Origin: Escherichia phage RB16
Length of the DNA: 64,000 bases
Reading direction: 5' to 3' (one strand)
Sequence record: NC_014467.1
The notes beneath the pieces were generated by a model that was not told the DNA's origin, did no database searches, and saw nothing but the letters and a program-made list of their open reading frames with translations. Both the position numbers and the translations under genes were made by a program. Below, piece after piece: positions 3,920 through 63,781 of the stretch (within the stretch, counting starts at the first letter, position 1; each line of letters starts with the position of its first letter).

Positions 3920-6139
3920 TTACAGTTTAACTTCTTTTTCTTCCAGGACGATTTCGCAATCGAATGTTGCACCTTCCCAGAACTTATGCGGGATAATGTC
4001 AGTCGCTTTAACCGATACTTTGGTTTCTTCAAAATCCATATCCGCAAACCAGGCGTGGCCTACAACGATACCGTACATTACACGGCTCAGGCGCTTGTTC
4101 AGTGCGCGTACTTCGTTGATGGTTGCCTTTGTTTCTTTATCAAGGTACTCGATTACCTTATCCTTGTCAAGCGCTGCGAGTTCAGCTTTAACAGCATCGT
4201 AAGCCCACAGGATGATCAGGTCGCCGTTGTTCAGTTTCTTCTTACCTTCGGCACGTTTCGCAACGGTTGCCGCTACAGCAGGAAGGGAGGAAACACCCTT
4301 GATTTTCAGATTCAGTTCTTTCGACATATAAACATCAGTCGAATCGGTACGGGTTACTTTCGGGGAGAATCCATAATCACGAATACCCTGTTCAGATAAC
4401 CATTCACCAGCGGCTTCACCGTATTTCTGTTTCAGACCTTCGGCATTACGTAAACCGATCGCGTCGTCACGGAAGAACTTCATCACCTTCTGGCGACCTT
4501 TCAGGATTTCCAGACGGATAGAGTCGTTTACATACTCTTTACCGGAGATCCCGCGAGTCATCGCACGGTTAACCAGAGGCAGACTTGTAAAGTCAACCAG
4601 AACCGACATACGGTCTTCACCGATTTTTGCCAGCGGCTTGATGGTCAAACCAGAAGCGCGGAGGTTTTTCAGTGTCGGAATATCAGTTTCCAGAGGCAGA
4701 ACTTTAACGTTTACGATACCGTCTTTAACGATGGTAAAGTTACGCACCTGCTTAGTTTCGATCTGTTCAGGCAGTCCCAGTTCTTTCTGTTTGCTTTCTG
4801 GGATAGTTACGTAACCTTGCAGATCCGTGTTAATGGAAATGTTAGGACGTGAACTGTTGCCGACCAGATGTTTAACCGATACTTTGGTTGTTGTCTGGGT
4901 AAATTTCGGTGTCCAGATTTCGTGCGTTACCATTTGTGCGGCTAATGCTTTGCGTTCTTCCGGTGTTTTCGCATTTGCGATCTGTTCTGACAGTTGATCC
5001 AGAGTATCATCTTCTTTCTGTACTGTCTGACGGCCTGTACGGTTGTACGCCCAGTGTTCAGAAGACAGGTCGATCACTGTGTCAGTTTCTGCCAGCAGTT
5101 CTAGAGCATCAACCAGAGTGAATGCGTTTTCGTCTGGAACCATGTTGTAATCAACACCTTCAATCAGACGTTTACCCGCATCAACTACCGCTTCCGCGAT
5201 CAGGTCTTTGGCGTTGGAATAATCCTGCTTAGTAAAGCAGTTATCGTAAGCCTTAATCAGACGAACGTCACCGACTTTTTTCAGCACTTTCCATGCCAGA
5301 TCAGGGTTCATGGTATGAAGTGCATGATACAGAACCACGTACAGAACCTGTTCACCTTCCATCGTAGCTGGATCAAATCCGTCGATATCGTTGATTGCGT
5401 TATCACCCAGCGCCCAGATGTTTTTGATATGCTCAGGAACCAGCACAACACCGTTTGCAGCGTTCAGGACATACACGCGCCCTTCGTCAATGTAGATCGC
5501 ATGGGTAGCATCACCTACTTTAACTTCAATACGCGCTGATGTTTGAGCGGTAATGATTTCAGCAAATGCTGGCTCGTATGCGTCGAAACCTTCAACGAAT
5601 TTATGCAATGCGTTGGTTGCTTCTGCCATTTTTTCCAGCAGAGGACGGTTAACATAGTAACCATATTCCAGGAACGCAATGCTGTTAAACGTCAGAGGGA
5701 GAACCGCACACGCTTTCAGGATGTCATCGGTACGCCAGCAGTTATCATAACCATCCGTCAGGAAGATCAGGCTGTTCAGGTTGCCGTTTTCGGATTGCAG
5801 GTCAGTTGCAATCTCAGCAGCCAGATTCAGAGGTTCGACGAAACCAGTACAACCAGTAGGTTTCAGATAACGGTCGATCGCGGTGCAGATATTGGTCAGA
5901 TCCGATACGTTGCTAACCTTCTCACCACGGAACACAGTACCGTAATCGCCTTTGCTGGAGAAGTACAGGATCGAAACAGTATCATCCTGTTTAACCAGGC
6001 TTGCCAGATTCGCTTTCAGGTGCTTACGAATTTTCGGCAATTCGCTGTACATTGAACCGGAAACGTCGCAAACGAAAACGTGGTTGGTCGGAGTCGGTTT
6101 AGATACTGCATTTTTGAATTCGATATTTGTAATTGACAT
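3920..6139 (-). CDS. von Willebrand factor A (vWA) domain protein, 739 aa
   Basis: N-terminal MIDAS motif VCDVSGSM (DxSxS) and downstream IFLTDGYDN; long C-terminal region of unknown fold. Confidence 0.7.
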   Translation of the reverse strand: MSITNIEFKNAVSKPTPTNHVFVCDVSGSMYSELPKIRKHLKANLASLVKQDDTVSILYFSSKGDYGTVFRGEKVSNVSDLTNICTAIDRYLKPTGCTGFVEPLNLAAEIATDLQSENGNLNSLIFLTDGYDNCWRTDDILKACAVLPLTFNSIAFLEYGYYVNRPLLEKMAEATNALHKFVEGFDAYEPAFAEIITAQTSARIEVKVGDATHAIYIDEGRVYVLNAANGVVLVPEHIKNIWALGDNAINDIDGFDPATMEGEQVLYVVLYHALHTMNPDLAWKVLKKVGDVRLIKAYDNCFTKQDYSNAKDLIAEAVVDAGKRLIEGVDYNMVPDENAFTLVDALELLAETDTVIDLSSEHWAYNRTGRQTVQKEDDTLDQLSEQIANAKTPEERKALAAQMVTHEIWTPKFTQTTTKVSVKHLVGNSSRPNISINTDLQGYVTIPESKQKELGLPEQIETKQVRNFTIVKDGIVNVKVLPLETDIPTLKNLRASGLTIKPLAKIGEDRMSVLVDFTSLPLVNRAMTRGISGKEYVNDSIRLEILKGRQKVMKFFRDDAIGLRNAEGLKQKYGEAAGEWLSEQGIRDYGFSPKVTRTDSTDVYMSKELNLKIKGVSSLPAVAATVAKRAEGKKKLNNGDLIILWAYDAVKAELAALDKDKVIEYLDKETKATINEVRALNKRLSRVMYGIVVGHAWFADMDFEETKVSVKATDIIPHKFWEGATFDCEIVLEEKEVKL

Positions 6140-6149
6140 TTAAATTTTC

Positions 6150-6488
6150 TCAGTATTTGGTTGTTTTATGTGCGTTTAAAATGCTTTGGATTTTTTCGGA
6201 AATCGTTTGCTGGTCTGGTTCACATCCCAACTTACCGCCAATCGCCTTATAAAAATCTTCAACAGAGTTTACGTTAAAATCCTGCATATTGAAACCTAAA
6301 GAGTACATGTGTGGATTTTTGAATTCGTAAACATCTACATCATACTCGTTAAGGTCGAAACGTTCAATATATTTCTTCAAAGAAAATAAATCGAACGGTA
6401 GCGGGAGGTGCTGTTCAATCGTTACAGGTTCCCCCAGCTTATGCGCTTTTAGCGTTGCCGCTTTCGTGTACATCATTTCTTCTTTCAT
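6150..6488 (-). CDS. hypothetical protein (112 aa)
   Basis: ORF track. Confidence 0.45.
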   Translation of the reverse strand: MKEEMMYTKAATLKAHKLGEPVTIEQHLPLPFDLFSLKKYIERFDLNEYDVDVYEFKNPHMYSLGFNMQDFNVNSVEDFYKAIGGKLGCEPDQQTISEKIQSILNAHKTTKY

Positions 6489-7000
6489 CAGTGGTGACTC
6501 TTTGATGTATGTTCAAGGTTGCGGAAAATGTTACCATGTTCCAGTTGGGTTCCAATCGGGCCGCACTCGTCAGAGTACGTAAACTCGTAGATAAACACGC
6601 CGTTTTGATTCCCGTACTTCGTGTTGTATTCTTCATACAGCCACATCTTGATCAGAGCGTCTTTCTCTTCGGTTTCTAAATCGTACCAATCCCGACCATC
6701 ATATGCAAGTGCAATTTGCGGATTTGAACGATAACGGGTTTCCGCGCTGTCTTCGGTTTCCCAATCATAGCGCTTATCATCGTAATACGATTCAAAACTA
6801 TTACCCATATGACCGCCTAAGTCACGGTGAACGTGTTGAACAACTTCTTCGGATGTCAGCGGGGGATTGTAGTAACCGCAATTAGGGGAACATTCACCCA
6901 TCATTTCACGAAGGTTGTTGATATCAGTCGGATCTTTCGGGAACCGGACGATGAAACTACTTGATGAACTATTGCTTACAAAACCAGAACGAATTTTCAT
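6488..7000 (-). CDS. hypothetical protein, paralog family A (shared N-terminus MKIRSGFVSNSSSSSFI)
   Basis: first 17 aa identical to ORF 2610-3077; Cys motif ECSPNCGYYN. Confidence 0.55.
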   Translation of the reverse strand: MKIRSGFVSNSSSSSFIVRFPKDPTDINNLREMMGECSPNCGYYNPPLTSEEVVQHVHRDLGGHMGNSFESYYDDKRYDWETEDSAETRYRSNPQIALAYDGRDWYDLETEEKDALIKMWLYEEYNTKYGNQNGVFIYEFTYSDECGPIGTQLEHGNIFRNLEHTSKSHH

Positions 7001-7242
7001 TTCAACGCCTCGAATTTGATTTCTTTCAGTGATTGTGTGTGATTATAACAAACCACTCCGCGATGTGTTTTCTTTCCGGTAAATCCGTCGAATATGGTGA
7101 CATAATAATGATAGCAACAATCATCAAGAGGATTGTTTCTGATATAGTCTAACACAACGTCTAACGATACGGTAGAGCATACACAGTCAGATTCATTGTC
7201 ACGACCATCATAGAAATCTTTTTCAATACTATAAATTTTCAC
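6997..7242 (-). CDS. hypothetical protein (81 aa)
   Basis: ORF track; ATGA-type overlap with neighbour. Confidence 0.4.
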   Translation of the reverse strand: MKIYSIEKDFYDGRDNESDCVCSTVSLDVVLDYIRNNPLDDCCYHYYVTIFDGFTGKKTHRGVVCYNHTQSLKEIKFEALK

Positions 7243-37849: not shown

Positions 37850-38702
37850 AATATCGGTTCCAAACTTTTTTCGCGCTGTATGGTTTTCCTTTCGACTGGA
37901 AAGCCTGTGTAGGCAACCAAACTGCTTTCGCCCAGTCTTTTGGGGCTATCTCTGCAAGAGGTGATCGCAGGTGCGCAGGTAAGTATGCTTTGATCATTTG
38001 ATCTGCACCGCGCATCCCTTTCACGTTGTTCCAGTTGATTTTCAATCTGGTTTTGTTTGAAAGGCGATCTGTTGATCCGTATCCACGTTTCAAAAGTTCT
38101 TCTAAAAACTCTTGACGGGCTTTAGGTGGCGCATAGTGCAAGTTCAAACCGTACAGAACTAAATTACCCGCTTTAGAACGTCCTGAACCCAGGAAGATGA
38201 TTAGCGGGAACCGATCCCAGTATGGTAGGGTATCTTTGTATTTCGCGTCATACACGAACGTATACAATCGCCCTGTTGCTGGTTTCGCTACCCTGTGCGT
38301 TTTGATGCTGGTTTTGATGAAGTCACCAAACCAATCGGTTGAATCCTTTTGACGTTTCGCAGCAGAAACACCCACTGTAATTTTCCGTAAACTATTTCGG
38401 AAGTCGTTGATGATGTCAACTGTATGTTTTTTGCGATAGTCATTGCGTTTTCGTCGGGCTTCGGTTTCTGCTGTACGTCGCGAGATTTCATCATCAATCT
38501 GCTGTTTATAGCGGTGCATAGACTTTGTGAACGTTGCGTATGCAATCCCGTTTTCGTCCGCGAATTTTTTGGCTGTCATGCCTTTTAATTTTGCGCGTCT
38601 GAATTTAACACCCAGTTCAACCCATTCACCAAGTTTTCGCTTCGGTGGCGGTTTCGGCTTATCTTCTTCTGCGATGATCTCAAACTCAAATATAAAACTC
38701 AT
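37848..38702 (-). CDS. 2: DNA end protector protein gp2
   Basis: 284 aa basic protein in T4 gene 2 position between 3 and 4. Confidence 0.7.
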   Translation of the reverse strand: MSFIFEFEIIAEEDKPKPPPKRKLGEWVELGVKFRRAKLKGMTAKKFADENGIAYATFTKSMHRYKQQIDDEISRRTAETEARRKRNDYRKKHTVDIINDFRNSLRKITVGVSAAKRQKDSTDWFGDFIKTSIKTHRVAKPATGRLYTFVYDAKYKDTLPYWDRFPLIIFLGSGRSKAGNLVLYGLNLHYAPPKARQEFLEELLKRGYGSTDRLSNKTRLKINWNNVKGMRGADQMIKAYLPAHLRSPLAEIAPKDWAKAVWLPTQAFQSKGKPYSAKKVWNRY

Positions 38703-39388
38703 AATTCCCTCCGTTTACACTTATCACCATGCCAACGTTTAAACATACCCGGCCTGAAACTATTACCGCAGTATTGGCATTCCATTTTCTCTATATTTGA
38801 AACTGCTTCCCTTATGCGTATCTTTTGTTCTTCTGTTCGGGGTTTCCCCTTTCTAGCATCTGCTGATTTTTTTACTGCATCAGGGGGCATAGTTTTTCCT
38901 GAACATGAGATAGAAATTTTTTGTTTATGTTCTTCTGATAGAGATCTCCCTACCTTAGCGTTTCTCATCTTTTCTATAGACTGTTCGTTGAATAGCCCTG
39001 GTCGAGTTTTACCTTTCAATGGATTGACCCACCCATCTTTCATTTTGCGAGATTTACCTATTTTTGCTTTACTCATTTTCTCTCGCGTTTCGCTGGATGC
39101 TGTTGTGTATGATACCCCACCCTCCCCACCAATTTTTAAATTGTATGTGTGTTCCGATAGCACGAACTCGCGATTGACAAGTTCCTTTTCTTTATCATAC
39201 ATTTCAGAAGGGGTGTCAAACACATACAATATACTTTTTGTGAAGTTGTGTATGCCATATTTGGTTTGTGCTTTCAATAAAAGTTTACCAGACCCCATAT
39301 ACGAATCATTCACATCTGTGGTTGCATGTGCGCCGATATAAATTTTATCGTTGATATTGTTTTTAATCTGATAGACTAAATATTTCAT
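38699..39388 (-). CDS. GIY-YIG homing endonuclease (Seg-like)
   Basis: MKYLVYQIKNNINDKIYIGAH (GIY...YIG), conserved R/E/N downstream, NUMOD3-like EKMSKAKIGK / EKMRNAKVGR repeats; inserted between genes 2 and 4. Confidence 0.75.
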   Translation of the reverse strand: MKYLVYQIKNNINDKIYIGAHATTDVNDSYMGSGKLLLKAQTKYGIHNFTKSILYVFDTPSEMYDKEKELVNREFVLSEHTYNLKIGGEGGVSYTTASSETREKMSKAKIGKSRKMKDGWVNPLKGKTRPGLFNEQSIEKMRNAKVGRSLSEEHKQKISISCSGKTMPPDAVKKSADARKGKPRTEEQKIRIREAVSNIEKMECQYCGNSFRPGMFKRWHGDKCKRREL

Positions 39389-39858
39389 TTCTCGTACCCT
39401 TTCCATCCAAAAACACGTTTGAGGGTGTCTTCGGTTATGATCTTGAACTCCCATCCTTTTGCTTTACATGCAGCATTGGCGGCTTTCCATTTGTCTATAT
39501 TTATGGAGTAAACATAGAGAGCATCAACAAATTTCTTTTTGTTGTGAACGTTGTTGTTCGCTGGCTTAGGTGGGGGCAATGTTTCTTTCATCGGTTTGAC
39601 TTCCCATAGGTAGGTCACACCGTTATCCATCTCAACATAAAAATCCATGAAGTAACGCCGTCTTTTACCGTCTGCGTTGCTGAAATAAGGTATCACAACC
39701 TCTTCACTGTTCCAGCGTTTCACATGCGGATTCCTGTCAAGCCAGTTCATTATATATTTTTCCCAGCTTGACCGATACGTTATCTTTCGAGGATCGCCTT
39801 TATATTTTGTTATGTTCTGGGGCATAAAAGACCCCTTGTACGTCTGTCTTCCAGCCAT
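39385..39858 (-). CDS. 4: head completion protein gp4
   Basis: 157 aa, T4 gene 4 position. Confidence 0.7.
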   Translation of the reverse strand: MAGRQTYKGSFMPQNITKYKGDPRKITYRSSWEKYIMNWLDRNPHVKRWNSEEVVIPYFSNADGKRRRYFMDFYVEMDNGVTYLWEVKPMKETLPPPKPANNNVHNKKKFVDALYVYSINIDKWKAANAACKAKGWEFKIITEDTLKRVFGWKGYEK

Positions 39859-39902
39859 TATAGATCCTAAATATAGTAAACATTAGATAGGGGAAATTAC
39901 AA

Positions 39903-40457
39903 ATGTTATTCTCGTTCTTTCCACCAGTTGATTACAAAGGCACACCGACTACTGATATTTTTCGGGATTATCGTTTTTACTTTAATCGCGTTATCAGAAA
40001 TTATAAGCCACGTACTTATCAACTGACCGGATCACTAAGACCCGAACAATTAGCTGAAACGCTATACGGAAACCAACAATATTATTGGGTTATCCTGATG
40101 CTCAATGATAACTATGACCCGTTTTACGGATGGATTACAGATCAGGAAACCGCTTATCAATGCGCGGTGCAGCGTTATTCAAAAGTAGGTGGTGAACAGG
40201 TTCTTTATCATATGGATGGGAAAAACAACCGATATTACAATCTGGTTGAAGATCCTAACAACCCTGGTCATTGGTATGACAAAGGTGATAAAGATATGCG
40301 GTATTTGCAATATCAAGGAACATTAGTCCCTATTGATATTTATGAAGATGCAGTGTTGAAAAATGAATCAATGCGAACCATCAAAATTATTAACCCTTCG
40401 GATATTCAATCGTTTGTAAGCGATTATATCAAGGAAATGGAAAAGGCGAATCTATGA
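39903..40457 (+). CDS. 53: baseplate wedge protein gp53
   Basis: MLFSFFPPVDY...NDNYDPFYGWIT...WYDKGDK near-colinear with T4 gp53 as I recall it. Confidence 0.9.
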   Translation: MLFSFFPPVDYKGTPTTDIFRDYRFYFNRVIRNYKPRTYQLTGSLRPEQLAETLYGNQQYYWVILMLNDNYDPFYGWITDQETAYQCAVQRYSKVGGEQVLYHMDGKNNRYYNLVEDPNNPGHWYDKGDKDMRYLQYQGTLVPIDIYEDAVLKNESMRTIKIINPSDIQSFVSDYIKEMEKANL

Positions 40458-42220
40458 AATTCGGTGGAAATATGCATTCCCCTTTCTTTGAGGGGGTGGT
40501 CGAAAACGTTGATGATCCTCGTCTACTGGGGCGTGTTCAGGTGCGTGTATTTGGTGAGCATCCGGCACAGAAACAAAAATCTGAAACTATCGGTATTCCG
40601 GTTGAGGAATTGCCGTGGATGATGCCTATTCAGGATATTCGCAGCGCCGCTATTTCCGGTGTTGGTTTTTCTCCGACTGGTATTACGCGCGGTAGTTTCG
40701 TTATCGGTTACTGGCGCGATAAATGGCACCAGGACGGCGTTATACTGGGAACCTTTGCTGGTGAGTACCGAGAGAAACCGGACACCCAGAAAGGCTTCTG
40801 TGACCCGTTTGGTGAGTATCCTCGTTATGTAGGTAACGATGTCAACGTACTGGCTCGCGGTGGTGCAGAAGGACGCGGTTCTTCAAGCGTGATTATTCGT
40901 GATGCTAACAGTTCGTTAGCTGTCAATCCAGATGATCGCCCACTTGATGAGATTCCAGAAGATAACCGACCTGATACTGGTGGGTTTACGATAGAAAAAA
41001 TGATCCGTGGTGATGAAGGTATTAGATTGACGTGGTATTATGATGTTAAAGGTTATACCATCGGGATCGGACACTTTTTCTTAACCGCACCACAAGGAAC
41101 AGACCCAGCAGTTGTTAACGCGGCGTTATCTAGACAAATTGGCAGAACGGTTACTGGTGTTCCTGGATCAATCACTGCTGATGAAGCGAGTGTTTTATTT
41201 CAGCAGGATTTAGCTAAAGTTCATAACGATATTCAGAATAATAGCAAAGTTCGGGAAGTGTATGTGACGTTAAACCGTCCTCGTCAAATGGCTATTGAAA
41301 ATATGTGCTTCCAAATGGGCGTTGGCGGTGTCGCCAAATTTACTAATGCTCTGGCTGCTATGAAGCGTCAGGACTGGAAAACCGCTTACAACGAACTGCG
41401 AAACTCTACATGGGCTAACCAGACGCCAGGACGTTCTTCACGCGTATCTAAAATCGTGCTGACGGGCAACCTTGAATCATACGGTGTTCAGGTTCCAGAT
41501 CCAGAAGGACGTTCATTGAGTGCTGCTTATAATGCGGTGGTTCTGCAAACAAGCAACCCAGAAGATCCTTTTGTTCCTGGTGATACCCGCGTAATGTTCG
41601 AGGAACCTAAATCGGCATACGCTGCTGAATATCCATACAACATGGTATTCGAATCCCGTTCTGGACACATTCAGGAATTCGACGACACCCCAGGCTTTGA
41701 GCGTTACAACCGCGTTCACCCAGCAGGATCATACGAAGAAATTCGTCCTGATGGAACCCGTGTTGTTAAAATCGTTGGTGATGATTATCTGATTGTTCAA
41801 CAGGGAAGAAAGGTAAACATCAAAGGTAATTTACAAGTAGTGATCGAAGGTGATGCGTTCATTTACAATATGGGTAACGTTCAACAGACTGTCGATGGAA
41901 ACGTAACTGAGTTCGTGCGCGGTAACGTAAACCAGACTGTCGAGGGTGAATATGTTGGGCGTATCAAAGGTAACGCAGAATTAACCGTCGAAAAAGATGC
42001 TACTGTAAACGTGGATCAGAATTTAATGGCTAACGTTAAACAGAATGCAACTGTTAACGTAACCGAAGATGCAACTGTTACCGCAAAAAATGCGATGATG
42101 GATATTGAACAAGACTTCGATTTAAACGCGAACAATATCACAATGGTTGCCCGACAAAATACACTAATCGATTCCGGTTCTCTGACTAAGATTACTGGCG
42201 GGACAGTCCAGGTAGGTTAA
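40454..42220 (+). CDS. 5: baseplate hub / tail-associated lysozyme gp5
   Basis: OB-fold N-terminus, lysozyme domain GYTIGIGHFF, C-terminal beta-helix VxGxxxxxV repeats; high similarity to T4 gp5 as I recall it. Confidence 0.95.
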   Translation: MKFGGNMHSPFFEGVVENVDDPRLLGRVQVRVFGEHPAQKQKSETIGIPVEELPWMMPIQDIRSAAISGVGFSPTGITRGSFVIGYWRDKWHQDGVILGTFAGEYREKPDTQKGFCDPFGEYPRYVGNDVNVLARGGAEGRGSSSVIIRDANSSLAVNPDDRPLDEIPEDNRPDTGGFTIEKMIRGDEGIRLTWYYDVKGYTIGIGHFFLTAPQGTDPAVVNAALSRQIGRTVTGVPGSITADEASVLFQQDLAKVHNDIQNNSKVREVYVTLNRPRQMAIENMCFQMGVGGVAKFTNALAAMKRQDWKTAYNELRNSTWANQTPGRSSRVSKIVLTGNLESYGVQVPDPEGRSLSAAYNAVVLQTSNPEDPFVPGDTRVMFEEPKSAYAAEYPYNMVFESRSGHIQEFDDTPGFERYNRVHPAGSYEEIRPDGTRVVKIVGDDYLIVQQGRKVNIKGNLQVVIEGDAFIYNMGNVQQTVDGNVTEFVRGNVNQTVEGEYVGRIKGNAELTVEKDATVNVDQNLMANVKQNATVNVTEDATVTAKNAMMDIEQDFDLNANNITMVARQNTLIDSGSLTKITGGTVQVG

Positions 42221-42222
42221 TC

Positions 42223-44295
42223 ATGATCATGGATTATGAATCCATCATTGATGGAATTATGCAAGATTTTCAGCATCCATGTGATGCTGAAATACCTGCT
42301 GGATCGTACAGACGTATTATCTGGCAGGGACATACAGAAGACTACCCCGCTGTCGGGGTAGAATGGGATACTGAAATAATTCCGATCGGGGCGCATCTTT
42401 ACACACAATCCCCTTTCGGACAGAAAAGCGATCCGCTTCCGGTAGTTAACTCCCCTGGAACCGATCCAGGAACTGGGGAAGCAACTGGGATTCTTGTAGA
42501 AAAGATAGGTTATTATTTCGCCACACAACAGGAGATTGATGACTATATCACTTCTATCGGGGCAACAAAACTAACTGGTAATGATTGGTACGGCGCGGAT
42601 CTGACAAAAGCAAACCTGTATAAAAACCCTGGGGAACTCGCGATGTATAAGGTCGAGAACTCTGGAGGTTATTTGCTTACTTCTGGCCCACGTTGCGATC
42701 AACGCATCAGACAGGCATATAATGAGGACACAGGCGCGTTTACAAGCATTGATTACTATTGGAATGGTAATCGTATTGCCTACATGAAACACGACGACAC
42801 AGGGGCGCACAATTGCAAATACGTGGGTATGGTGGTTAACACCAACGCCGACACAAGCATTCCCCCTGTACCTCCGGCTATGCCGTCAATTTACGGGGCA
42901 TTGCCTAGCGAAATTTCAATGATGCGCTCCGGTTTGGGTTGTCTTCCTGCAACGGTAGGTTTTGCGTACACGAATATCAGTGATGCAATGCTATCCGCAT
43001 GGAACGAAACGCGCAAGTCGTTTAAGCTCGTGTTTGATATGCTTACGGGTATCACTAAAACGGGTTCCGGTGGTATCTCCACGATGTACGATGGTTTGTC
43101 TATCGCAATGGAGGAAATCACAGCAGGTGCTCTTGCGTTGTCACAGCAAGCATGGCAAGCCGCAATTAAGGTGTTCAAAGATATTATGTCTTCTGCGTTA
43201 AACATCGTAGGTGGTGCGTGGAACATGATAAAGAGTTTTTTACCGACTGTTACGATTCTGGGTGTTTCAATAAACATCTATGATTTGATTTTTGGTGATA
43301 ACTCAGTACAGACACTGAAAGATTCATTCCAAGCGATCATTGATGCTGGTACAGAAACCTATGAGAACGTCATAAACGCAATATACAGCGCTATAGGCAG
43401 TGCATACAATTATACCGTTGAATATGTCAAGGCTGGCGCTCGCGACCTCGTGGATGCTTGCAGTACGCTTTTTGACTGGTGTATTACCATGTTTCAGAAT
43501 GGTTGTGTTGCTCTGGTGGATCTGTACGGACGAATAATGCAAATCTGGGCTATGCCTCCAACGGTTCCAAACCCTTTATGGGCTGCTGTTCTGGCTATCC
43601 GTAACATTATGATGCAAATCAAACCGCTTGATGTGATCCTGGGTGGAAACTTCCCTGGGTTTACGGCAATGGATTTGTACCAAATGGCACAGGAGAAGGT
43701 GAAAGAGTTTATCGATCAGTCGTATGCGCAAATACGCGTGTATTATGATCAGGTTAAGGATCTGTATAACACACTGACTACACAGACACAAGAAAGGGAT
43801 GCGATTAAACGCAAGTTCGATCAATACCTAAACTGGATGTGGGAACCTGTAAAGGAAGCAACGACTGCTGCTTATCAGGCTGCACTTGATGCCGCTAACG
43901 CTGCTGTGAATGCGACTAAGGCCGCATATGAGGGAATCAAAGCACAGATTGCTAATCTGCAAAATGGGATGAAAGACACCTACAGCATGGCAATGGCTGA
44001 ACTCAAGAAACTGCCTGTAATGGCTCAGATTAACCAGTTCTTAGGTTACTGTGGGGTTGCATTCGATGACCTGTTAAAAACGTATGAGAACGCGCTGACG
44101 GGCGCACAATCGCTATATAAAAACTTTGTTGACAGTTCCCGCTCGTTTAAGGACACATGCAAGGTGATTTATAACCAGATTTGTACGCTTGCTCTAAGTA
44201 AGGTAACTCAATACGTAAACAAATTATTGTCATTAATCGGACTCGCGATCACATTCGGTTCAATTAGTGTTTGCGTCCCTATGGTTCAATACTAA
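42223..44295 (+). CDS. large hypothetical protein (690 aa) in the gp5-gp6 interval
   Basis: uninterrupted 2073-nt ORF starting 2 nt after gp5 stop; Pro-rich linker PPVPPAMPS; long Ala/Ile/Leu-rich C-terminal region; hydrophobic C-terminus. Confidence 0.7.
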   Translation: MIMDYESIIDGIMQDFQHPCDAEIPAGSYRRIIWQGHTEDYPAVGVEWDTEIIPIGAHLYTQSPFGQKSDPLPVVNSPGTDPGTGEATGILVEKIGYYFATQQEIDDYITSIGATKLTGNDWYGADLTKANLYKNPGELAMYKVENSGGYLLTSGPRCDQRIRQAYNEDTGAFTSIDYYWNGNRIAYMKHDDTGAHNCKYVGMVVNTNADTSIPPVPPAMPSIYGALPSEISMMRSGLGCLPATVGFAYTNISDAMLSAWNETRKSFKLVFDMLTGITKTGSGGISTMYDGLSIAMEEITAGALALSQQAWQAAIKVFKDIMSSALNIVGGAWNMIKSFLPTVTILGVSINIYDLIFGDNSVQTLKDSFQAIIDAGTETYENVINAIYSAIGSAYNYTVEYVKAGARDLVDACSTLFDWCITMFQNGCVALVDLYGRIMQIWAMPPTVPNPLWAAVLAIRNIMMQIKPLDVILGGNFPGFTAMDLYQMAQEKVKEFIDQSYAQIRVYYDQVKDLYNTLTTQTQERDAIKRKFDQYLNWMWEPVKEATTAAYQAALDAANAAVNATKAAYEGIKAQIANLQNGMKDTYSMAMAELKKLPVMAQINQFLGYCGVAFDDLLKTYENALTGAQSLYKNFVDSSRSFKDTCKVIYNQICTLALSKVTQYVNKLLSLIGLAITFGSISVCVPMVQY

Positions 44296-44318
44296 ATACC
44301 CGATAACGAGGGGTAATA

Positions 44319-44996
44319 ATGAATTACGATAGGATATATAAAGCTCTTATAGATAAGCGGAGGAAAACTCCGCTTAAAGACGGATATAAGGAACATCATC
44401 ACATCATTCCTAAATCTATGGGCGGTAGTGATGATTTTGATAATATGGTGTATTTGACAGCGAGAGAACATTTCGTTGCGCATCTTTTACTCGCTCGTAT
44501 ACATGGTGGTAAGATGTGGTTTGCTGTTGCTATGATGTGTGGGCGTGGATCAAGTAGCGCGAAAGGCGTTGTCCCTACTTCTCGAATATATGAGTTAGCC
44601 AAAAAACGGGTAGCCAATGAAAGAAGTATATTGTTTTCTGGGAAATTACATCCATTATACGGAAAGCCTTGTACAGAACAACGAAGAAAACGCATAGCTG
44701 AAGGACGTAAAGGGAAAACGCATACTCAGGAAACGAAACAGAAAATGTCTGAATCGAAGAAAGGATATAAACATACTCAGGAGACGAAACAGAAAATGTC
44801 TGAGTCACGGAAGAGACAAACACCTCCTACTCTGGGTAAAAAGTTACCTTCTCCATCAATCGAAAAAAGAAAGAAACTTAGTGAGGCTATTAAAAATCAG
44901 CCAATCATCAAATGTCCATATTGCGGGTTAGAAAGTAACAGCAAAGGAAATATGGTGAGGTTTCATTTCGACAACTGCAAATATAGGAAACCATGA
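44319..44996 (+). CDS. HNH homing endonuclease (Mob-like)
   Basis: HNH core EHHHIIPKSMGGSDDFDNMVYLTAREHFVAH; internal duplicated HTQETKQKMSES motif. Confidence 0.8.
   Translation: MNYDRIYKALIDKRRKTPLKDGYKEHHHIIPKSMGGSDDFDNMVYLTAREHFVAHLLLARIHGGKMWFAVAMMCGRGSSSAKGVVPTSRIYELAKKRVANERSILFSGKLHPLYGKPCTEQRRKRIAEGRKGKTHTQETKQKMSESKKGYKHTQETKQKMSESRKRQTPPTLGKKLPSPSIEKRKKLSEAIKNQPIIKCPYCGLESNSKGNMVRFHFDNCKYRKP
44721..44807 (+). repeat. 35-nt near-perfect tandem duplication inside HNH gene
   Basis: CATACTCAGGA(A/G)ACGAAACAGAAAATGTCTGA(A/G)TC at 44721-44755 and 44773-44807. Confidence 0.8.
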
Positions 44997-46909
44997 TGGC
45001 TACAACTCGTAAGCAAATTAATCAGATCCCCGATATCTTTGTCGGGGCTACTTTTGACGAAATCAAATCTGACTTAATCAACTGGCTCCGAGGTCAGGAC
45101 GAATTCAAGGATTATGATTTCTCCGGCTCGCGCATGAACGTACTTGTGGATCTGTTATCATACTGTACACTGTACATTCAGCAAATGAGTAACACCGCAC
45201 TGTTCGAATCGTTTATTCGTACCGCTGCATTGCGTAGTTCTGTTGTCCAACAGGCTCAGGATTTGGGCTATATGCCGGACTCCCGTACCGCTGCAAATAC
45301 TGCGATCCTGATCACTGCGAAGAACCCACTGAACCCGACATCGATCCGTATTCCACGCGGTACGAAATTCATTGGTACAGTGAAAGAAACAAACAGTTTC
45401 CCGTTCGTCGTATCCGATGACGTGGTGATTGTTCGTGATAAAGACAATAACTATGTTTCGATGTTGAACATCGTACAGGGGCGTTTAGTCCGTACCGAAG
45501 TCATCTTTGATGGTTCTACGATCCTGATTCGAGATCCTAACATCGACCGTAGTCAGGTTCGCGTTACTGTCAACGGCGCTCAATGGGATGACTGGACAAA
45601 CGAAAGTATCGTAAACGCAACGGGCGCATCAACAATTTTCTACATGCGTGAAACTGTGGATGGACATACCGAAGTTTACTTTGGTGAAGGTGAAACCAGC
45701 CAACAGGTCGCAGGTGGTGCTCTGACTGCGGATTACATCGGTGGCTTGAAACCTGCAAACGGTTCAACCGTTGTTATTGAATATATTTCAACCAACGGCG
45801 AAGAAGCAAACGGTGCTGAAAACTTTGTCTACGTGGATACGTTGACAAACATTAGCATTACGAATATTGTTGAGAACCCGACTGATTCAGCGGACTATGT
45901 AGGCGCTGATGGTGGTGGTGAACCGGAAGATATCGAACGTATTCGTGAACTCGCGCCTATTATGCGTGAGACACAGCGCCGTTGTGTTACTGCATCGGAT
46001 TATGAATCGTTCCTGTCTCACCGTTTCGGTTCTGTTATTCAGGCGGTTCAGTGCTTTACTGATAAAGAAAAACCTGGCTATGCGTTCATCGCTGTTAAAC
46101 CGAAATCAGGGTTGCGCTTAACCTCTGTTCAAAAAGAGGACATGCAAAACTATCTGGCGAAGTATAACCTGGCGACTATTACGCCGTCTATCCTTGACCC
46201 GAACTACCTGTATATTGTACAAAGCGTTAAAGTAACGTATGATATCAGTAAGTTGATCGAGTCTGAGGAATGGTTGCGTGGTCAAGTAATCAATGAAATT
46301 GACAGATACTACACAGATAACGTTGAAATTTTCAACAAATCTTTCAGTAAATCCAAGATGTTGACTTATGTTGATAACGCGGACGTGTCGATCATTGGTT
46401 CTTCTGCGACTATTCAGCTATTGCGTGAACTGGATAACTATTACAGCGCCCCGATGTCTGGTATTCACTTCTTAAACCAGGTGAAATCACGTTCTGTTGT
46501 TTCGAATGGGTTCAAGTACACAAATGCTGCTGGTGATTCGTATGATGTGCGCTATGCGTCAACAGATATGAACACCACGACCGGACTCGCGAAAATGGTT
46601 ATCGGGCCATTCAAAAACGGTGATATCGGTATCGCAGCCTATACAGGAAACGATTTTGATAAATATCCTGGAGTAACCGATCGTGATAAATATTACGAAG
46701 TCGGCTATGTGGAACATTTTAATGATTTCATTAGTTTCGATCTTGGTGTCCTGAACGTTCCATCCGAGCGATTCAGCGCTGCTTACATCGAACTGACTGG
46801 TACACCTCTGGAAGAGAACATTTTCACCCGTGATGGTTCTCTGATTGTATTTGAAAACGATCTACGTCCTCAATATACAACGTTGACGATGAATCCAATC
46901 AGTCAATAA
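44993..46909 (+). CDS. 6: baseplate wedge protein gp6
   Basis: near-colinear with T4 gp6 as I recall it (IFVGATFDEIK...TRDGSLIVFENDLRPQY...PISQ). Confidence 0.95.
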   Translation: MMATTRKQINQIPDIFVGATFDEIKSDLINWLRGQDEFKDYDFSGSRMNVLVDLLSYCTLYIQQMSNTALFESFIRTAALRSSVVQQAQDLGYMPDSRTAANTAILITAKNPLNPTSIRIPRGTKFIGTVKETNSFPFVVSDDVVIVRDKDNNYVSMLNIVQGRLVRTEVIFDGSTILIRDPNIDRSQVRVTVNGAQWDDWTNESIVNATGASTIFYMRETVDGHTEVYFGEGETSQQVAGGALTADYIGGLKPANGSTVVIEYISTNGEEANGAENFVYVDTLTNISITNIVENPTDSADYVGADGGGEPEDIERIRELAPIMRETQRRCVTASDYESFLSHRFGSVIQAVQCFTDKEKPGYAFIAVKPKSGLRLTSVQKEDMQNYLAKYNLATITPSILDPNYLYIVQSVKVTYDISKLIESEEWLRGQVINEIDRYYTDNVEIFNKSFSKSKMLTYVDNADVSIIGSSATIQLLRELDNYYSAPMSGIHFLNQVKSRSVVSNGFKYTNAAGDSYDVRYASTDMNTTTGLAKMVIGPFKNGDIGIAAYTGNDFDKYPGVTDRDKYYEVGYVEHFNDFISFDLGVLNVPSERFSAAYIELTGTPLEENIFTRDGSLIVFENDLRPQYTTLTMNPISQ

Positions 46910-46916
46910 TTTACAA

Positions 46917-46942
46917 CCCCTGTCATTTGGCAGGGGTTTTTT
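46917..46942 (+). terminator. intrinsic terminator between genes 6 and 7
   Basis: CCCCTG-TCATTTGG-CAGGGG + T6. Confidence 0.6.
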
Positions 46943-60616: not shown

Positions 60617-61434
60617 TTGTTTGGATACTGGTATAATAGTTCGCTGCGTAACTACATTGTTCTTATGGGACAATTGTTTAACCATGTTCAGGTTAAAAGA
60701 GTACGCGGCGATCAAGAAAAATTTATTAAGGTTCCAATTACCTACGCATCGAAAGAGAAATTTCTTGCTTCCATGAATAAACTCAACTATGCGTATAGTC
60801 AGGAAAACGTAGCAAAGACGGAAACCATTTTACCGCGAATGAACCTATCACTGGTCGATCTGCAATATAACGCAATTCGTAAAACCAGCATAGCGGTCAA
60901 CCAAAAAATGACGCAATTGCAATCACCCCGCAAGACGATCACACAGTTTAACCCTGTGCCTTATCGTTTAATTTTTGAACTGGGTGTGTATACGCGATAT
61001 GAAGACGACATGTTTCAGATCGCAGAACAGATTTTACCGTATTTTCAACCACATTTCAACTGCAAGATTACCGAACTGCATAAGAACGAAATCACAGTTG
61101 ACCGAGACATCAAAATCAGTCTCCAGTCGGTTGCACCAGATACAACGTTTGAGGGCGAAGCATCACAGCGCCGACATGTTGAATGGTCTTTCATGTTCGA
61201 ATTGCAGGGTTATCTGTACCCGCCTGTTACTGACGTTAAGGGCGAAATCAGAACAGTATACACGGATTTCTTTGCCAATATGAACCCATTGGATAAAGAT
61301 AACTTTGAATCCGTTGATAGTCAAGCCGATCCGGTAGATCTGCCTTTGCAGGATTACACGGGCGAAGAATATATTCAGACGTATTCGCACGATAAGCCGA
61401 TCCCGTCTGGTGATGAACCTCCTAAGCCGAGGGA

Positions 61435-61438
<4 letters not shown>
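60617..61438 (+). CDS. 15: tail sheath stabiliser / connector protein gp15
   Basis: MFGYWYNSSLRNY... parallels T4 gp15 MFGYFYNSSFRRY...; apparent TTG start at 60617 after AGGAGT. Confidence 0.9.

Positions 61439-63781
<2,343 letters not shown>

Follow-up and report, generated by a model that had tools for sequence, protein, structure and literature searches.

A large, mostly helical protein encoded directly behind gene 5 of Escherichia phage RB16 is a putative spike-tip protein

Analysis of a 64,000-nt stretch of the genome of Escherichia phage RB16 (NC_014467.1; hereafter the window) revealed that the open reading frame (ORF) at 42,223–44,295, directly behind the gene for the cell-puncturing spike protein gp5, probably encodes the spike-tip protein of an RB43-like (Pseudotevenvirus), T4-type phage that lacks the conventional tip protein gp5.4, with a single chain capping the gp5 trimer. 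The spike-tip proposal for this ORF family was already published in 2025–26 and is re-discovered here; pairs of related phages in which the end of gp5 and the tip gene have been swapped together constitute new supporting comparative evidence for it. A preliminary description of the window, made from the letters alone, had suggested an association with the spike tip, and this suggestion is supported by the conserved junction with gp5, the co-inheritance of the ORF with the gp5 C-terminus and the published low-resolution density at the RB43 tip (PMC12407873).

The ORF encodes a member of the RB43 orf205w family

The ORF (42223..44295, + strand) starts with ATG and runs uninterrupted through 690 codons, beginning 2 nt after the TAA stop codon of gene 5 (42218–42220), as first described. 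Its protein matched PHROG 5296 along the whole profile (E=0, 1300 bits, aa 3–690 on profile positions 1–685 of 685) and had 94–95% identity to proteins annotated as hypothetical in Citrobacter phage Miller, CfP1 and RB43 (94% for RB43 ORF205w). The preliminary description could not name a family; the family is PHROG 5296, that is RB43 orf205w, named a putative spike tip in 2025. No family in Pfam or NCBIfam was matched by the protein. When 1.84 billion representative proteins were searched exhaustively with HMMER, 18 matches resulted: eight full-length family representatives, including two distant members of 743 and 764 aa, five fragments, and five weak matches confined to the helical region.

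Full-length homologues were present in 214 phage records and in 52 protein clusters, the latter all with lengths of 664–717 aa apart from one of 580 aa. Most of the nucleotide differences between the ORF and its RB43 counterpart (141/195) fell on third codon positions, and the codon changes comprised 115 synonymous and 42 non-synonymous ones; the ORF is under purifying selection. This selection, together with the conservation of the full length in so many records, shows that the ORF is neither a chance reading frame nor a fusion artefact. The possibility, raised at the outset, that two genes had been joined by a sequencing error is likewise made extremely improbable by the full-length ORFs of independently sequenced phages.

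In RB43, orf205w has been proposed as the spike-tip protein (Mattenberger et al., bioRxiv 2025, PMC12407873); it is described there as a protein of ~690 aa that has an alpha/beta region at residues 1–220 and a helical remainder and sits at the 5.1–5.4 locus. A 17.7 Å cryo-electron microscopy (cryo-EM) map revealed a tip density larger in RB43 than in T4, which an AlphaFold model of orf205w “can fit” according to the authors (PMC12407873). For the orf205w homologue of Klebsiella phage Helios, gp203, an AlphaFold 3 (AF3) model together with the gp5 trimer shows an intramolecular triple coiled-coil (287–327, 398–440, 631–670) with a terminal loop, and gp203 was speculated to be a structural analogue of a gp5.1/gp5.4 complex (Viruses 2026, PMC13611949). 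The RB16 protein shares with both homologues its family, length, position between genes 5 and 6, predicted architecture and three core helices; the HNH homing endonuclease gene between the ORF and gene 6 is found only in RB16 and is the sole difference in kind.

The end of gp5 and the ORF form an exchangeable unit

Comparison of 12 loci carrying the family (11 from IMG/VR and one metagenomic locus, L009, with a 30%-identical relative) revealed the gp5 C-terminus directly upstream of the ORF in 12/12, and gene 53 preceded gene 5 in every locus that reaches far enough upstream. The distance between the gp5 stop and the ORF start varied only from -4 to +6 nt, down to 30% identity. The last residues of gp5 were always K(I/V)(T/S)G(G/A)(T/N)VQVG, although the helix before them diverges, and the equivalent of the RB16 junction, CAGGTNGG-TAA-ATG, is kept across the family. 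The final gp5 codons of RB16 contain a Shine–Dalgarno-like string 6 nt 5' of the ORF start codon, a position consistent with translational coupling of the ORF to gp5. A second ATG at 42229 could be the true start, because most homologues open with MNY or MDY. In locus L015 gene 5 and the ORF have remained neighbours, without gene 6 next to them.

Two of these loci showed further peculiarities. In L015 (8065–14031; a 46%-identical relative on a 183-kb IMG/VR contig) a block of small ORFs on the reverse strand comes after 53–5–ORF, and gene 6 was not found within 6 kb of the module. In L009, the most distant relative, a gp25-like gene (GPW_gp25; 2542–2967) lies between the ORF homologue and gene 6.

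Beyond the pseudo-T-evens, the family also occurs within Tevenvirinae, including Dhakavirus Bp7 and Gaprivervirus SP18 (genera as given in their records) as well as vB_EcoM_G8 and SG1. The gene order is 53–5–[687-aa homologue]–6–7 in Bp7 and SP18 and 53–5–[5.1, 5.4]–6–7 in Dhakavirus VR5. DNA identity between Bp7 and VR5 was 88% as far as a point 76 codons short of the gene 5 end; the sequences beyond it were unrelated until gene 6, from whose first base identity was 91%. Similarly, identity of gp5 between SP18 and VR5 was 95–100% over residues 1–480, 28% over 521–560 and 14% in the final 35. By its last 80 residues, gp5 sorted with tip type and not with taxonomy, with identities of 100% for Bp7/SP18, 24% for Bp7/VR5, 41% for Bp7/RB16 window and 74% for VR5/T4. 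Furthermore, Bp7 (L023) and SP18 (L021) shared a 2.4-kb tract (locus 4713–7139) that was 99.3% identical with 18 mismatches, spanning from ~95 codons before the gene 5 stop to ~25 codons into gene 6, between flanks of 70–89%. This tract indicates a recent horizontal transfer of the gp5-end and tip cassette between Gaprivervirus and Dhakavirus.

On the basis of the breakpoints among Bp7, SP18 and VR5, the sorting by tip type and the 99.3% tract, the gp5 end (~76–95 codons) and the ORF are, within Tevenvirinae, inherited, replaced and transferred as one unit, an alternative to a unit of the gp5 end with 5.1 and 5.4. Such co-inheritance is what a physical partnership between the spike end and the ORF protein predicts.

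No conventional gp5.4 or PAAR protein was detected

T4 gp5.4, which is common elsewhere (1471 phage records), gave no convincing tblastn match in the window (best E 9.2) or the complete RB43 genome (best E 1.1), and none at all within +/-6 kb in the 12 family loci. A Pfam scan of small RB43 ORFs (159 non-overlapping ORFs of 70–190 aa, concatenated) recovered expected T4 families (gp25, gp53, gp19, UvsY and others) and contained no PAAR_motif, DUF4150 or DUF4280. These results agree with the initial remark that no separate small PAAR-like ORF is visible in the window, and a conventional gp5.4 elsewhere, which would have spoken against a tip role, was not detected in any of the three search spaces. 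The ORF stands in the T4 gp5.4 slot, as had been proposed; it lies directly 3' of gene 5, and VR5 has 5.1 and 5.4 at the equivalent site. In the T4 RefSeq record, the interval between genes 5 and 6 holds 5.1, segC, 5.3 and 5.4; the preliminary description was thus right to place 5.1, 5.3 and 5.4 there and wrong to add repEB and repEA, which lie antisense inside gene 5.

The ORF protein itself showed no PAAR domain in Pfam at E<=0.1, and alignment of its family profile with hhalign gave a probability of 0.1% against T4 gp5.4 and 0.4% against T4 gp5.1. The conical beta-structure fold of the PAAR type was not seen, and no toxin or enzyme domain was found by searches of Pfam, NCBIfam and PDB sequences. 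An analogy to extended PAAR effectors of type VI secretion systems (T6SS), drawn in the preliminary description, is not supported by these results or by the Foldseek comparison with PDB given below.

Predicted structure of the ORF protein

An AlphaFold 2 (AF2) monomer computed from a 49-sequence alignment had a predicted local distance difference test score (pLDDT) of 88.9 and a predicted template modelling score (pTM) of 0.80. Its secondary structure agrees with the published description of the family (PMC12407873), an alpha/beta N-terminal part of ~220 aa followed by helices. Long helices were predicted at 295–329, 405–442, 482–536, 545–582 and 638–670 and a C-terminal strand at 681–689; three of the helices lie at the positions published for the triple coiled-coil of Helios gp203. 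The N-terminal domain holds the most conserved motif, WYGADL(S/T)K (aa 122–129), as well as the invariant C20 and C198. When the N-terminal part was modelled alone, residues 20–205 stayed confident and 210–292 lost confidence, which argues that the latter segment packs on the helical part. Within the proline-rich segment, P214 and P217 are invariant.

Conservation peaked at aa 122–129, 321–350, 391–420, 441–480 and 651–670 and was lowest in the long hairpin of 482–582, save for its loop. In this loop (KFDQYLNWMWEPVKEATTAA), Q534, Y535, M539 and T548 are nearly invariant and the string YLNWMWEPV is conserved within the otherwise variable hairpin. The aromatic loop is a candidate for an apex that contacts membrane or lipopolysaccharide (LPS), its apical position being suggested by the published AF3 model (PMC13611949).

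The sequence features named in the preliminary description were found again (QHPCD at aa 17–21, PPVPPAMPS at aa 214–222 and the hydrophobic C-terminus). The C-terminus has a Kyte–Doolittle 19-aa mean of 2.04 at aa 668–686, and F678, C684 and P686 in it are nearly invariant; its earlier reading as a possible membrane segment is not favoured by the AF2 model, which predicts a helix end and a beta-strand (681–689) within the fold instead of a transmembrane helix, with pLDDT of 86–94 there. Four cysteines are conserved among the 49 members (C20 and C198 invariant, C240 and C684 at >=90%) at sites far apart in the sequence; by analogy with metal sites that occur in other spike tips, they might form a metal site, or else disulfides.

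Foldseek comparison of the full AF2 model with PDB gave no match at E<=0.001, 9VZK included, and the best match of the N-terminal domain in PDB had E=1.6; the only matches in BFVD were family members. An internal repeat, by which one chain could cap a trimer, was considered and rejected: hhalign between sub-alignments gave <=4% for a three-fold sequence repeat.

A model for the spike tip and a chaperone alternative

We propose that the ORF is expressed late from a 53–5–ORF–6 transcript with its translation coupled to gp5, and that one copy would cap the gp5 beta-helix trimer at its blunt C-terminal end, where T4 has gp5.4, perhaps with gp5.1. In place of a small PAAR cone, the tip would be a ~76-kDa module with a novel alpha/beta N-domain, three long helices and a variable hairpin bearing the conserved aromatic loop; the three helices, following the published AF3 model, would form a three-helix bundle within the chain that continues the spike axis. 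On sheath contraction this module would touch LPS and the outer membrane before any other part of the virion, and like other spike tips it would presumably be released into the periplasm.

Several points weigh against this model. The tip density of RB43 comes from a 17.7 Å, C6-averaged map and was assigned neither through a mutant nor through labelling; its authors word the assignment as “possibly encoded by orf205w”, and attempts to produce a complex of orf205w with a gp5 beta-helix fragment failed (PMC12407873). The literature searched contained no mass spectrometry of virions for members of the family; the virion proteome of ValerieMcCarty concerns a Jiaodavirus, taken as gp5.4-type because its numbering leaves two genes between gp5 and gp6, and the ECLFM1 virion study gives gel bands only. 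The whole-genome absence of PAAR genes refers to RB43 only, and not to RB16 beyond the 64-kb window, Bp7 or SP18. The stoichiometry, the orientation, the gp5-binding surface and any role after puncture are inferred, and a tight coupling of translation would be expected to yield comparable amounts of the two proteins rather than a 1:3 ratio. Finally, co-inheritance with the gp5 tip is equally expected of a dedicated gp5 folding or assembly factor.

The last objection leads to an alternative in which the protein is a non-virion chaperone that caps or templates the end of the RB43-type gp5 beta-helix while this folds or the hub is assembled, to be discarded afterwards. T4-type phages do use non-structural chaperones for tail and fibre assembly, such as gp51, gp57A and gp38. 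The genomic evidence (coupling, junction and cassette co-inheritance) fits such a factor equally well, and no virion proteomics was found for the family; the RB43 tip density would then be, for example, a gp5 helix longer by one strand plus another protein. We consider this alternative unlikely. RB43 has no other candidate tip gene, yet its tip density is larger (PMC12407873); a confident three-part fold of 690 aa with a fast-evolving, exposed hairpin is unlike the known small phage chaperones; and the ORF diverges about as fast as gp5 (42–46% identity, versus 55–64% for gp53, gp6 and gp7), as expected of a host-contacting part.

Resemblance to tape measure proteins

Aside from its own family, the protein showed a profile-level likeness to tape measure proteins over its helical two-thirds. 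Seventeen tape-measure PHROGs (including 1272, 4200 and 1535) matched aa ~250–660, with a best E value of 2.5e-14, and of the five weak non-family HMMER matches, the three that were scanned fully were all tape measure proteins by PHROG. With hhalign, one tape measure protein gave 90% over aa 473–571 at 16% identity and another gave 9%; none of the Pfam tape-measure families was matched by the protein. This resemblance explains the “tape measure” labels of the family in some GenBank records. A role as the tail ruler of the phage was rejected: RB43 has a separate, unrelated gp29-type gene in its 27–28–29–48–54 cluster (ORF103w/104w, PHROG 7361/1283), and the ORF is not at the position of a tape-measure gene.

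The gp29-type gene of RB43 is annotated as two ORFs (457 and 105 aa; RB43 60894–62625, L007 10894–12625, a short way upstream of the part that corresponds to the window), which match positions 1–459 and 476–579 of one 579-position PHROG profile; the split could be a frameshift, a sequencing error or real.

The resemblance raises a further alternative, a tape-measure-like ejection protein that resides inside the virion, in the lumen of the hub or tube, and is expelled with the spike to act on the periplasm or inner membrane. The PHROG and HMMER matches, the 90% hhalign result and the GenBank label “tail length tape measure protein” speak for it. We rate it as quite improbable, since the phage group has its own gp29-type gene without similarity to the ORF (hhalign 1%), the likeness of 16% identity involves helices only and could be compositional, the AF2 model is a compact fold and not an extended fibre, and the gene lies beside gene 5 and not beside genes of the tube or hub lumen.

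Genomic context of the ORF

The features of the spike module and of the ORF protein are collected in Table 1. Downstream of the ORF an HNH gene and then gene 6 follow, as initially described. No terminator-like site was found between gene 5 and the ORF, and no sigma-70-like promoter of note upstream of the ORF; the strong terminator-like hairpin behind gene 6 is likely the end of the transcription unit. The T4 late-promoter consensus TATAAATA was absent from the + strand of the whole window. Instead, CTAAATA, which we take to be the late promoter used by RB49-type phages, occurs before gene 53, at the ORF stop and, a third time, before gene 7 (46948, + strand), in all three cases 21–36 nt 5' of a start codon; its count is not above chance, and the late-promoter reading rests on position. 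The copy at the ORF stop is a candidate promoter for gene 6 in relatives that lack the HNH gene.

That the ORF encodes a protein without relation to the tail, early or non-structural (for instance one associated with a replication origin, like T4 repE), or is a sequencing-error fusion, is extremely improbable: essentially nothing favours it beyond the presence of oriE and of the repEA and repEB ORFs in the gene 5 region of T4, and those two ORFs are short, antisense and inside gene 5, whereas the ORF lies 2 nt behind a late structural gene in the same orientation, without a notable sigma-70-like promoter, and is conserved in full length, at 670–760 aa, in the clusters and records counted above, which come from independent sequencing projects.

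Table 1 Features of the spike module and of the ORF protein in the window
Feature	Position	Strand	Basis or remark
CTAAATA, candidate late promoter for 53–5–ORF–(HNH)–6	39867..39873	+	36 nt upstream of gene 53; position only
Gene 53, baseplate wedge, first gene of unit	39903..40457	+	Pfam Phage_gp53 5.9e-63
Gene 5, cell-puncturing spike / tail lysozyme, 588 aa	40454..42220	+	Pfam Gp5_OB 1e-61, Phage_lysozyme, Gp5_C, Gp5_trimer_C; PHROG 430
Last ~76 codons of gene 5, distal beta-helix ending KITGGTVQVG	41990..42217	+	Mapped by analogy from Bp7/SP18 versus VR5, not measured in the window
AGGTAGG, Shine–Dalgarno-like string in final gp5 codons	42210..42216	+	6 nt 5' of ORF ATG
ORF, 690-aa orthologue of RB43 orf205w, putative spike-tip protein	42223..44295	+	PHROG 5296 full length, AF2
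N-terminal alpha/beta domain, aa 1–214, confident core aa ~20–205	42223..42864	+	AF2, conservation
Conserved Cys codons	42280–42282, 42814–42816, 42940–42942, 44272–44274	+	aa 20, 198, 240, 684
Pro-rich segment, aa 213–221	42859..42885	+	
Helical region, aa 295–670	43105..44232	+	AF2 secondary structure
Long helical hairpin, aa 482–536 and 545–582	43666..43968	+	Most variable and most tape-measure-like part
Conserved aromatic loop of hairpin, aa 531–550	43813..43872	+	Conserved relative to flanks
Hydrophobic C-terminus, aa 668–690	44224..44292	+	AF2 helix end and beta-strand 681–689
CTAAATA(CCC), candidate late promoter	44292..44298	+	Overlaps ORF stop, 21 nt before HNH gene start
HNH and NUMOD3 homing endonuclease	44319..44996	+	NUMOD3 3e-15, HNH 2.7e-5; PHROG 655
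Gene 6, baseplate wedge	44993..46909	+	Five Gp6 Pfam domains
Terminator-like hairpin, 10-bp stem then T-run	46915..46938	+	Directly after gene 6

The HNH gene overlaps the start of gene 6 by 4 nt, and the CTAAATACCC motif before it overlaps the ORF stop codon. No HNH match was found between the ORF and gene 6 in RB43 or the 11 IMG/VR loci, where gene 6 lies ~10–55 nt behind the ORF, with the exceptions of L012 (~850 nt unaccounted) and L015 (no gene 6 downstream). Judged by these gene orders, the HNH gene is an insertion peculiar to RB16 and not part of the spike module.

Upstream of the module, an ORF for a GIY-YIG and NUMOD3 (seg-like) endonuclease (38699–39454, - strand) lies between genes 2 and 4 and overlaps the 3' end of gene 4 by ~70 nt. 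Genes 2 and 4 of RB43 are adjacent with a 21-nt gap; this endonuclease ORF is thus another insertion of a mobile endonuclease close to the spike module, the second besides the HNH gene. The homologue of gene 4 (head completion; 39385–39858, - strand) matched Pfam Tn7_TnsA-like_N (6.8e-23), an endonuclease-like fold.

Relation to known spike tips and significance

The protein shares with T4 gp5.4 and other PAAR tips (PDB 4KU0; T6SS PAAR) its genomic slot, with one-for-one replacement between sister phages, and presumably the job of a single chain that caps the trimeric beta-helix and sharpens the spike. It differs in being 7x larger and mostly alpha-helical rather than a beta cone, without similarity in sequence or fold, and no Zn/His motif of the PAAR type was recognised in it. 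The ORF replaces 5.1 as well as 5.4, since the swapped cassette of VR5 consists of these two genes only; it has no detectable similarity to gp5.1, a protein never seen in T4 maps (PMC13611949). Its likeness to tape measure proteins is set against a compact predicted fold and the low identity already mentioned. Phage P1 likewise has an alpha-helical extension past the spike tip with a loop at its end, the UpfB tripod on the PAAR protein UpfC (PDB 9VZK, PMC13611949); there, three copies of a separate UpfB stand on a PAAR protein, whereas here one PAAR-less chain would provide all three helices. The spikes of P2 (gpV) and phi92 (gp138) belong to the same functional class of membrane-attacking tips delivered to the periplasm (PMC12407873), but in them a tip built around an Fe-binding HxH motif is fused to the spike, and that of RB16 would be a separate, large helical protein.

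Little is understood so far of how contractile tails pass the envelope once it has been punctured, and the T4 tip gp5.4 was only recently shown to be important for fitness and for infecting hosts with deep-rough LPS. Candidate phages for therapy against Klebsiella, Enterobacter, Cronobacter, Citrobacter, Proteus and E. coli form a widespread clade that would use a wholly different tip of seven times the size. The present analysis adds independent support to the published hypothesis and points to pairs for a cassette-swap test: Bp7 and SP18 versus VR5 are near-isogenic natural experiments on the effect of tip type on host range, LPS dependence and injection efficiency.

A bolder and rather doubtful extension of the spike-tip model is that, after release into the periplasm, the tape-measure-like helical region opens, inserts in the inner or outer membrane and helps to form or seed a conduit for DNA, or alternatively that the protein is a delivered effector. 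The parts involved in insertion may be the variable hairpin with its NWMWEP loop and the hydrophobic helices at aa 328–357 and 441–473. If this extension were true, the gp5 end and tip would be an exchangeable penetration-strategy cassette, swapped by T4-like phages for different envelopes.

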